From Candidatus Thorarchaeota archaeon (lineage in GTDB: Archaea; Asgardarchaeota; Thorarchaeia; Thorarchaeales; Thorarchaeaceae), in assembly GCA_038893995.1 (NCBI GenBank), contig JAWAQK010000018.1, positions 1-10,812 of the forward strand: a DNA stretch of 10,812 bases, given 5' to 3'. This document shows positions 2,280-3,183 of this stretch, in pieces (position 1 is the stretch's first letter; the number at the start of each line of letters is the position of its first letter). The notes below the pieces were generated by a model. The model had not been told where the DNA came from and searched no databases. It was given only the letters and a program-made list of their open reading frames with translations. Made by a program: the position numbers and the translations under genes.

Positions 2280-2660
2280 TCATATCTTTCCGATGAGACT
2301 GACTGCTGCTCTCCCAAGGTCAACAACCGTCAGTTCCGGTACTGAGTCCGGGGTCGACCATGCCAAGAGCCAGGTTGTCCCATCGACAAGAAAGGTCAGG
2401 AAGTTTCCCCCATCATCTGCAGTCGAAACGTAGTACTCAGGAGTCGATGTGATTCTTCGATAGCTCACTCCATTAATCGTGACGGAGGGTGTAGCCTCCT
2501 TCGCAGCTGAGACCAGTGCTTCAGCAACTGGCACCAGATCCCAATTGGATGTCTGCCAGATGACCTCCGAGCCGCGGCAAACCGCGAAGGCCTGTATCTT
2601 AGGATTATGACCATACAGTGTTGCCCACGCTTTCTCGATCTCGGACACTCCATCGACCAT
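2280..2660 (-). CDS. Asgard-type profilin paralogue 2 (divergent, acidic)
   Basis: 126 aa. The pattern IQAFAV..EVIWQTSNWDL..SVTINGVSY..STPE..GG..AWSTP..VD.GRAA..L.GKI follows the Asgard profilin layout (Loki-type QTENW, SI.GIKY, G.G). About 40% identical to its neighbour by hand alignment. AGGAG SD upstream. Confidence 0.8.
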   Translation of the reverse strand: MVDGVSEIEKAWATLYGHNPKIQAFAVCRGSEVIWQTSNWDLVPVAEALVSAAKEATPSVTINGVSYRRITSTPEYYVSTADDGGNFLTFLVDGTTWLLAWSTPDSVPELTVVDLGRAAVSLIGKI

Positions 2661-2691
2661 CGTCTTATTCTCCTTTCTGGCAGAGCGCAGT

Positions 2692-2717
2692 GGGTGCGGA
2701 TTTGATCAACCGCACCC
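2692..2717. terminator. Intergenic stem-loop between the two profilin genes (mRNA stabiliser, attenuator or processing site)
   Basis: Perfect 8-bp GC-rich inverted repeat GGGTGCGG/CCGCACCC with a 10-nt loop, 14 nt after the profilin-1 stop. Confidence 0.55.
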
Positions 2718-2731
2718 CTCAGTACCCTTGA

Positions 2732-3112
2732 CTAGATCTTTCCCTTGAGTCGTTTGGCTGCTCTGTCCACATCAACATACACCTGATCTGGAGCAGCATT
2801 GGGACTCGCCCAAGCCACAACAAACTTGTCGTTGTCGATTCTTGCCAGAAGAAGTATTCCATTACCCGCAACACTCCGGGCCACAAGACTCTCCGGCGTG
2901 GAGCGTATAGTGCTGTACTTTACTTGGTTCTGTACTACAGACGCAGCCCTCTGAGCAACGGCCGAGCTCAGTGCAGGTGCGTCAGCAGTCAGGTCCCAGT
3001 TGTTGCTCTGCCACAGAACTCTTCCAGATGTAGTTATAACTCCGAATGCCTGAATCATTTGGTTCGAGTCATTGTAAGCCTGTGTGTATGCTTCCATTAC
3101 TGGATCTGTCAC
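2732..3112 (-). CDS. Asgard-type profilin paralogue 1 (actin-binding motif retained)
   Basis: 126 aa containing GRVLWQSNNWDL, NQVKYSTIRST (compare human profilin-1 GQKCSVIRDS) and GNGILLL, with a basic C-terminal helix RAAKRLKGKI. GTG start 6 nt after SD GGGGTGA. Confidence 0.88.
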   Translation of the reverse strand: MTDPVMEAYTQAYNDSNQMIQAFGVITTSGRVLWQSNNWDLTADAPALSSAVAQRAASVVQNQVKYSTIRSTPESLVARSVAGNGILLLARIDNDKFVVAWASPNAAPDQVYVDVDRAAKRLKGKI

Positions 3113-3169
3113 ATTTCTTCACCCCGTGATGTTGGACTCTGTGGTCTGCTATGCTCTAGCATGGCATCA

Positions 3170-3183
3170 CATTTTAAGTTAAT
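3170..3183. promoter_or_regulatory. AT-rich putative bidirectional TATA region between the divergent profilin and DUF167 genes
   Basis: ATTTTAAGTTAAT is the only AT-rich island in the 100-bp divergent spacer. It reads TTTTAAG on + and CTTAAAAT on -. Confidence 0.45.

Follow-up and report, generated by a model that had tools for sequence, protein, structure and literature searches.

A tandem pair of profilin genes in Thorarchaeia

We analyzed a stretch of 10,812 nucleotides (nt) from Candidatus Thorarchaeota archaeon (contig JAWAQK010000018.1, assembly GCA_038893995.1), referred to here as the window. The source assembly is a 2.33-Mb Thorarchaeia genome that is 91% complete. Positions 2280-3112 hold two open reading frames (ORFs) of 126 codons on the minus strand, profilin 1 (P1) followed by profilin 2 (P2), with a spacer of 71 nt between them (Table 1). 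The encoded proteins align across 122 residues with 40% identity (E 1e-24); ORFs read from the opposite strand are shadows of these genes. A preliminary description, made from the DNA letters, had set four motifs of P1 against their counterparts in P2: KYSTIR/SYRRIT, LVARS/YYVST, RAAKRLKGKI/RAAVSLIGKI and EAYTQAY/KAWATLY. All are found in the minus-strand translation, which also confirms the placement of KYSTIR at 2920-2903 and SYRRIT at 2465-2448. The net charges (K+R-D-E), which had been put at about +1 for P1 and about -6 for P2, were recomputed as +1 and -6.

Both genes had been taken for profilins, and this holds up by phmmer, by the AlphaFold2 (AF2) fold and by Foldseek. In phmmer searches P1 matched PDB entry 7PBH, the thorProfilin structure, at E 3.3e-56 (~75% identity) and, more weakly, the Odin (E 4.7e-10) and Loki profilins. 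For P2 the E values were 8.3e-19 to 7PBH and 6.8e-4 to Odin profilin. Each protein therefore has significant similarity to proven profilins. The AF2 model of P2, for which 60 orthologues were used, reaches a predicted local distance difference test score of 94.6 and comprises a helix at residues 3-18, seven strands and a helix at residues 108-122, which is the profilin order of elements. The best Foldseek matches to this model are the Odin, Loki-2, Thor and Loki-1 profilins (template modeling (TM) score 0.78-0.88, E 1e-9 to 1e-7), followed by eukaryotic profilins. P1 and P2 each have a central antiparallel sheet, one side of which is covered by the N- and C-terminal helices. Because of the phmmer matches, the P2 model and its Foldseek matches, we identify both, from sequence and predicted structure, as genuine profilins.

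The Pfam Profilin model (PF00235) scores P1 at E 0.0013 and 19.2 bits, under its gathering threshold of 25 bits, and a Pfam search of P2 gave no match at all. At E<=1 across the family, the profilin model finds 61 of 64 P1 members versus 10 of 60 P2 members. Since the cut-off is missed even by P1, whose orthologue thorProfilin has a solved structure, these low scores reflect the limited reach of the model and not non-membership. In public records the P2 orthologues are all labelled 'hypothetical protein' and have no Pfam domain. A W-Q-[ST]-x-N-W motif after strand β2 is present in both proteins, as WQSNNW in P1 (residues 34-39) and WQTSNW in P2 (35-40). In each clade its W, Q, N and W reach 97-100% conservation; among 46 other Asgard profilins the Q, the N and the second W predominate, and the first position is mostly Y or F.

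The pair is conserved and P2 evolves faster

When the class was searched with P2, 80 of 85 genomes in the window's family gave two adjacent matches. P1 invariably comes before P2, on the same strand, and most spacers measure 55-110 nt. The sister family, represented by a single genome, has one stand-alone profilin plus two profilin domains within longer ORFs.

In a careful maximum-likelihood tree, the P1 clade (support 100/99) and the P2 clade (100/98) are sisters (100/96), and the sister-family profilin falls outside them, a placement on which a quick tree concurs. Approximately unbiased (AU) tests leave unrejected a grouping of the sister-family profilin with P2 (p 0.79 and 0.30). The tandem duplication goes back at least to the common ancestor of the family, and possibly to before the split from the sister family.

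The two copies have evolved at different rates. The 64 P1 orthologues are 69-86% identical and form essentially one cluster at 50% identity, whereas the P2 orthologues are 36-53% identical and fall into at least eight clusters. Within genera (95 pairs), the ratio of non-synonymous to synonymous substitution rates (dN/dS) has a median of 0.042 in P1 against 0.104 in P2, and dN is 3.2x higher in P2. Given a dN/dS of 0.104, P2 is a gene under purifying selection and not a decaying copy.

As a separate observation, profilin domains lie inside much longer proteins (200-2200 amino acids) both in the sister family (G001:C34:7761-8063 and G001:C8:3762-3983) and in the metagenomic representatives P0036, P0038, P0043, P0056, P0070 and P0094.

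Paralogue-specific residues and the actin face

Residue conservation was counted over 66 P1 and 64-67 P2 orthologues. The P1 clade conserves K/R65 (100%), Y66 (100%), S67 (97%), T68 (97%), R70 (97%), R79 (98%), Y9 (100%) and K/R120 (100%), and further invariant or near-invariant positions are Y112, D116, R117 and K/R123. P2 has an invariant set of its own, W12 (100%), L15, N19, T37, L110 and D114, with P20, H86 (95%) and W97 near-invariant. In strand β4 of P2, position 66, the site of P1 K65, is K in 33%, T in 28% and E in 13%. Elsewhere in this strand Y67 is kept in 100%, position 68 is K or R in ~54%, R69 is found in 70%, and position 71 is S, A or T and almost never Arg. Position 80 of P2 is T or S in ~96%, and position 120 is hydrophobic in ~90%. 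Compared clade by clade, the column counts reveal paralogue-specific residues that are conserved across the family; the differences between P1 and P2 are not peculiar to the window's genome.

We polarized these differences with an outgroup of the 46 other Asgard profilin representatives and the sister-family profilin. Among 58 columns with an outgroup-majority residue, that residue is retained by both copies in 19, by P1 only in 11, by P2 only in 12 and by neither in 16. Of the 11 columns kept by P1 alone, nine fall in β4, β5, the β5-β6 turn or the N-terminal half of the C-helix; of the 12 kept by P2 alone, six fall in the N-terminal helix and β1-β2 (Fisher's exact test on a hand count of 9,1 versus 3,6, ~0.02). 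Strands β4-β6 and the first half of the C-terminal helix are the actin-contacting elements in solved profilin-actin complexes. This complementary retention of ancestral residues is our best evidence for a division of labor between P1 and P2. Actin contacts were mapped from the Odin and Loki alignments, two equivalences given in PMC8410842, mutants described in PMC10907219 and the bovine profilin-actin structure.

HMMER aligns KYSTIR and SYRRIT with VKYSVI of Odin profilin, so that their assignment to an actin-contact strand, β4, is borne out. The Lys of the Odin segment is equivalent to human K69 (PMC8410842). At this site (human K69, Odin K58, Leishmania K68) a Lys is found in 34 of the 46 other Asgard profilins, in all P1 (as K/R) and in 33% of P2, and in Leishmania profilin the K68A mutation reduces actin affinity (PMC10907219).

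The preliminary description had read the Arg residues of KYSTIR (R70) and LVARS (R79) as marks of the canonical actin binder, and their loss from P2 as a sign of a changed partner. Alignment indicates instead that both are P1-specific novelties and not the ancestral or canonical Asgard state. Other Asgard profilins have Q, E or D at the R70 site and T at the R79 site in 37 of 46; Odin and Loki-2 profilins, crystallized on rabbit actin (5ZZA, 5ZZB), carry D/T and E/T at the two sites. Because these actin-crystallized profilins are also without both Arg, the absence of R70 and R79 from P2 allows no inference of lost actin binding. The poorly kept Lys at the P1 K65 position would be a better argument for an altered actin face in P2 than the loss of Arg. 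The equation of R79 with human R88 is also doubtful: human K90 corresponds to Loki K71, 11 residues past the β4 Lys (PMC8410842), which puts that region at P1 residues 74-76. Residue 75 is Arg in most other Asgard profilins (28/46) and Ser in both Thor copies.

Charge, C-terminal tail and polyproline groove

Across the family the mean net charge is -0.9 for P1 and -4.3 for P2, and P1 is the more positive member in 53 of 61 pairs. The difference is localized to helix α2, β5, β7 and the C-tail. The end of the C-helix together with the tail has a mean charge of +3.1 in P1 versus +1.1 in P2; P2 has shed much of the basic C-terminal tail of P1.

The polyproline site of 7PBH comprises V24, Y28, T29, W53, K139, L141 and I145 (bioRxiv 10.1101/2021.08.06.455371). 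The corresponding residues are V5, Y9, T10, W34, K120, L122 and I126 in P1, and I8, W12, A13, W35, V120, L122 and I126 in P2. The P2 groove is more aromatic and hydrophobic, and conserved, with an invariant Trp in place of Tyr and Ile, Val or Leu in place of Lys120. Judged from the residues involved, these changes could raise the affinity of P2 for proline-rich ligands and lower that for anionic lipid. The P1 orthologue thorProfilin bound a polyproline peptide from VASP with a dissociation constant of 250-500 uM and slowed the elongation of rabbit actin (PMC8410842).

Putative expression signals and the P1 start codon

A/T runs of 7 nt or more precede P1, at -85 to -40, in 54 of 63 genomes, and only 10 of 63 P1-P2 spacers contain one. 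In the window a TATA-like box upstream of P1 is the putative promoter of the pair (Table 1). From this arrangement, P1 and P2 appear to be carried on one bicistronic transcript from one promoter. A scan for promoters and terminators of the bacterial type found nothing, as expected for an archaeon.

The spacer of the window can form a stem-loop with a minimum free energy of -22.5 kcal/mol, only marginally more stable than shuffled sequences (z -1.77). Most orthologous spacers have a GC-rich hairpin of unrelated sequence just past the P1 stop, and the median z for the hairpin is -1.45 over 63 spacers versus -0.09 inside the P1 coding sequence. By acting in processing, stability or attenuation, the stem-loop may tune the ratio of P1 to P2.

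Table 1 Profilin genes, motifs and putative expression signals of the locus, numbered as in the window.
Feature	Position	Strand	Remarks
P1, profilin 1, thorProfilin orthologue	2735-3112 (with stop 2732..3112)	minus	126 amino acids; GTG start at 3112, TAG stop 2734-2732
P2, profilin 2, fast-evolving sister paralogue	2283-2660 (with stop 2280..2660)	minus	126 amino acids; ATG start at 2660, stop 2280-2282
KYSTIR, P1 residues 65-70	2903..2920	minus	Strand β4, homologous to human K69-R74; aligned to Odin VKYSVI and Loki-2 IKYMIV
SYRRIT, P2 residues 66-71	2448..2465	minus	β4, same strand as P1 KYSTIR; AF2 strand 65-72
TATA-like box CTTAAAAT, putative promoter of the pair	3171..3178	minus	Upstream of P1
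Shine-Dalgarno-like GGGGTGA before P1 start	3119..3125	minus	Shine-Dalgarno-like motif there in 56/63 genomes
Shine-Dalgarno-like GGAG before P2 start	2670..2673	minus	Read from the sequence; Shine-Dalgarno-like motif there in 44/63 genomes
Stem-loop in P1-P2 spacer	2682..2728	minus	Core GGGGTGCGG (2718-2710) pairs with CCGCACCC (2699-2692)

The conserved start of P1 is MSDPVM, preceded by a conserved GGGGTGA (window 3110-3125; loci L003-L072). In the window an in-frame TGA lies two codons upstream of the P1 start, and P1 has no N-terminal extension here. An in-frame stop at most two codons upstream occurs in 34 of 66 genomes, the window included, and where the upstream frame is open the upstream peptides are not conserved. 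This pattern suggests that the published 'extended N-terminus' of thorProfilin (7PBH, TFG12995.1) is probably a start-codon miscall, a possibility that its authors raise themselves (PMC8410842).

Actin and candidate ligands in the genome

The window's genome has a single actin gene (G000:C33:15545-16729); neither the Pfam search nor tblastn found a second in this 91%-complete assembly. One actin is also present in 34 of the 39 family genomes with an actin match, and a second, divergent actin-like gene occurs in a few (G026, G013 and G007). The preliminary description had offered a different actin-family protein as a possible partner of P2, which these counts make unlikely. Actin is nearly unchanged across the family, with Pfam scores all at 415-445 bits.

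The actin gene adjoins a two-domain gelsolin gene on the opposite strand (G000:C33:13154-16729), and the profilin pair lies on another contig. The genome has one further gelsolin domain. In six family genomes the actin matches (G009:C24, G015:C90, G008:C13, G003:C3, G007:C1 and G026:C103) are 30 nt longer and contain one in-frame stop, TGA or TAA; possible causes are recoding, a frameshift or a small insertion. A search of the window's genome found no third profilin; the only candidate, a weak one at G000:C1:113240-113611, proved to be a Roadblock/LC7 protein.

Screening for polyproline tracts identified an acidic protein of 406 residues (G000:C1:20121-21353; locus L082:1622-2839:-), which gave no match in a Pfam search. 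It is apparently disordered outside an N-terminal two-helix hairpin and a C-terminal module, and the N-terminal domain has no sequence match in the PDB. The module contains a W-[ST]-P-x-D-E-P motif (10 of 11 loci) followed by an acidic stretch. Near the C-terminus is a proline tract 5-9 residues long (7-9 with one exception), and the protein ends in an invariant-looking, basic ...RRLFFG, given also as ...EEERRRRARRLFFG[AT]. Orthologues (loci L084-L094) occur in 29 of 30 sampled family genomes, with presence also counted as 44 of 48 family genomes. This protein is a plausible native ligand of profilin.

Comparison with known profilins

Structures of Odin and Loki profilins with rabbit actin were reportedly provided by Akil and Robinson in 2018. 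Of the profilins studied so far, the closest is thorProfilin (TFG12995.1; nuclear magnetic resonance structure 7PBH; PMC8410842; bioRxiv 10.1101/2021.08.06.455371). P1 is its orthologue, although in the window it has no N-terminal extension, and P2 is a paralogue (Foldseek TM 0.78) that differs at ~60% of positions, with Trp for the Tyr of the polyproline site, a hydrophobic residue for K120 and neither R70 nor R79. Odin profilin and Loki profilin-1 and -2, solved on rabbit actin (PDB 5ZZA, 5YEE, 5ZZB), share the fold (TM 0.83-0.88 against the P2 model) as well as the WQ[ST]xNW motif and the K-Y of β4; with P2 they additionally share the T of β5 and the G-H of β6. They differ in identity (~20-25%), and the Thor paralogues are without Arg75 and the Loki loop. 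The P1/P2 pair is comparable to the profilin isoform pairs of Lokiarchaeota and eukaryotes. The lokiarchaeal paralogues, however, are not reported as a fixed tandem pair.

Of the two profilin isoforms of Acanthamoeba, the basic one binds phosphatidylinositol 4,5-bisphosphate much more strongly, and their affinity for actin is similar. As in the pair described here, Acanthamoeba profilins I and II (PDB 1ACF, 2ACG; both among the Foldseek matches) have one fold and unlike net charges, but they are eukaryotic, non-operonic and far more alike than P1 and P2 (40%). A precedent for a P2 without actin binding is given by the divergent mammalian paralogues profilin-4 and profilin-3, which are tissue-specific eukaryotic genes, whereas the aromatic residues of the polyproline groove have been maintained in P2 and even reinforced. 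In profilin-4 and profilin-3 the fold persists but the sites for actin and polyproline are lost or weakened, and profilin-4 binds neither ligand.

A proposed second isoform and its alternatives

We regard it as moderately probable that the locus is a conserved two-gene profilin unit in which P2 is a working second isoform with shifted affinities, acting beside P1 on the same actin system. Fold, orthology, conservation patterns, selection and gene arrangement are established by the analysis above, and from them we infer co-transcription and all that follows on binding. Tandem duplication, no later than the family's common ancestor, would have given rise to P1 and P2. P1 has kept the ancestral residues of β4-β6 and the first half of the C-helix and has gained two Arg and a basic C-terminal tail; it would most likely be the principal partner of anionic lipid and of the one actin in the cell. 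P2, which would be made from the same transcript, has the same fold under purifying selection, but its actin-side strands and tail are remodeled and less constrained, and it is on average 3-4 charges more acidic. Relative to P1, P2 would bind lipid more weakly, actin probably more weakly and proline-rich ligands possibly more strongly. In so far as subfunctionalization had been proposed for the pair, the conserved, complementary divergence is compatible with it, but the logic of Arg loss and the idea of a second actin fail.

Several observations weigh against this proposal of shifted affinities in P2. Regions for the retention test were assigned post hoc, with the data already in view, and the counts are small. 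Conservation is lost throughout P2, not just on the actin face, and the mean charge of its β4 is still basic (+1.5 versus +2.0 in P1). P2 also keeps T80 and G85-H86, the ancestral Asgard state found in the actin-binding Odin and Loki-2 profilins, and with these residues it may bind actin perfectly well. The N-terminal domain of the polyproline protein occurs in two other Asgard families too and was not found in the sister family, so that its distribution does not single out P2.

One alternative, which we consider possible but rather doubtful, makes P2 an ordinary actin-binding isoform like the Odin and Loki profilins; the pair would differ mainly in charge, and hence in lipid affinity, much as the Acanthamoeba isoforms do, and the β4/β5 changes would be neutral for binding to actin. 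The D/E and T of actin-crystallized Odin and Loki-2 profilins at the R70 and R79 sites, as in P2, agree with this, as do the retained β6 G-H (H86 in 95%), the net-basic β4, the purifying selection on P2 and its more acidic charge in 53 of 61 pairs. It accounts poorly for a K69-equivalent Lys in just 33% of P2, given the lower actin affinity of Leishmania K68A (PMC10907219), and for the nine outgroup-majority residues lost from the actin-face elements of P2. These losses could be taken further, to a P2 that does not bind actin and serves another partner or acts as a decoy or regulator. Its actin-side residues vary and it does not conserve the key Lys; W12, L110, T37 and N19, which are invariant in P2, differ from P1, and P2 evolves 3x faster than P1 while actin is nearly constant (415-445 bits). 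We think this unlikely, as no alternative partner was identified, the ancestral T80 and H86 of the actin-binding type are retained, and strict linkage and apparent co-transcription with P1 suggest the same process.

Two further readings change the partner or the assembly. That P2 serves a second actin-family protein, an actin-related protein or a divergent actin, seems highly improbable: genes of this kind are present in G026, G013 and G007, but the Pfam search and tblastn found one actin in the window's 91%-complete genome, and a single actin in 34 of 39 family genomes with a match stands against a profilin pair in 80 of 85. We judge it very unlikely that P1 and P2 form a heterodimer or obligate pair, with one subunit for actin and the other for a proline-rich ligand. 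Constant adjacency, apparently one promoter, the complementary retention of two functional sides and the dimeric nature of the related Roadblock/LC7 fold, which is among the Foldseek matches, speak for it; profilins are normally monomeric, and the large gap in evolutionary rate ill suits a tight, co-evolving interface. In a bolder form of the two-isoform proposal, which we hold to be quite unlikely, the unit would divide both classical binding functions of a single eukaryotic profilin over two co-expressed proteins, with actin and lipid for P1 and a proline-rich ligand for P2, possibly the product of G000:C1:20121-21353.

Implications for actin regulation in Asgard archaea

Asgard profilins are central evidence for a regulated actin cytoskeleton that predates eukaryotes. 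One Thorarchaeota profilin has been studied so far, and it acts weakly on rabbit actin and polyproline. A second, selected profilin, invisible to Pfam, lies beside the first in nearly every genome of the family; because P2 accompanies P1 in this way, experiments on actin regulation in Thor have covered half of the system. The analysis also corrects two tempting inferences: the eukaryote-like Arg residues of P1 are a novelty of its lineage rather than an ancestral trait, and the N-terminal extension published for thorProfilin probably reflects a miscalled start codon. The complementary residues retained by the two copies provide a concrete, testable hypothesis of a division of labor. If true, the split of functions between P1 and P2 would be an archaeal forerunner of, or an alternative to, actin delivery by profilin and polyproline.

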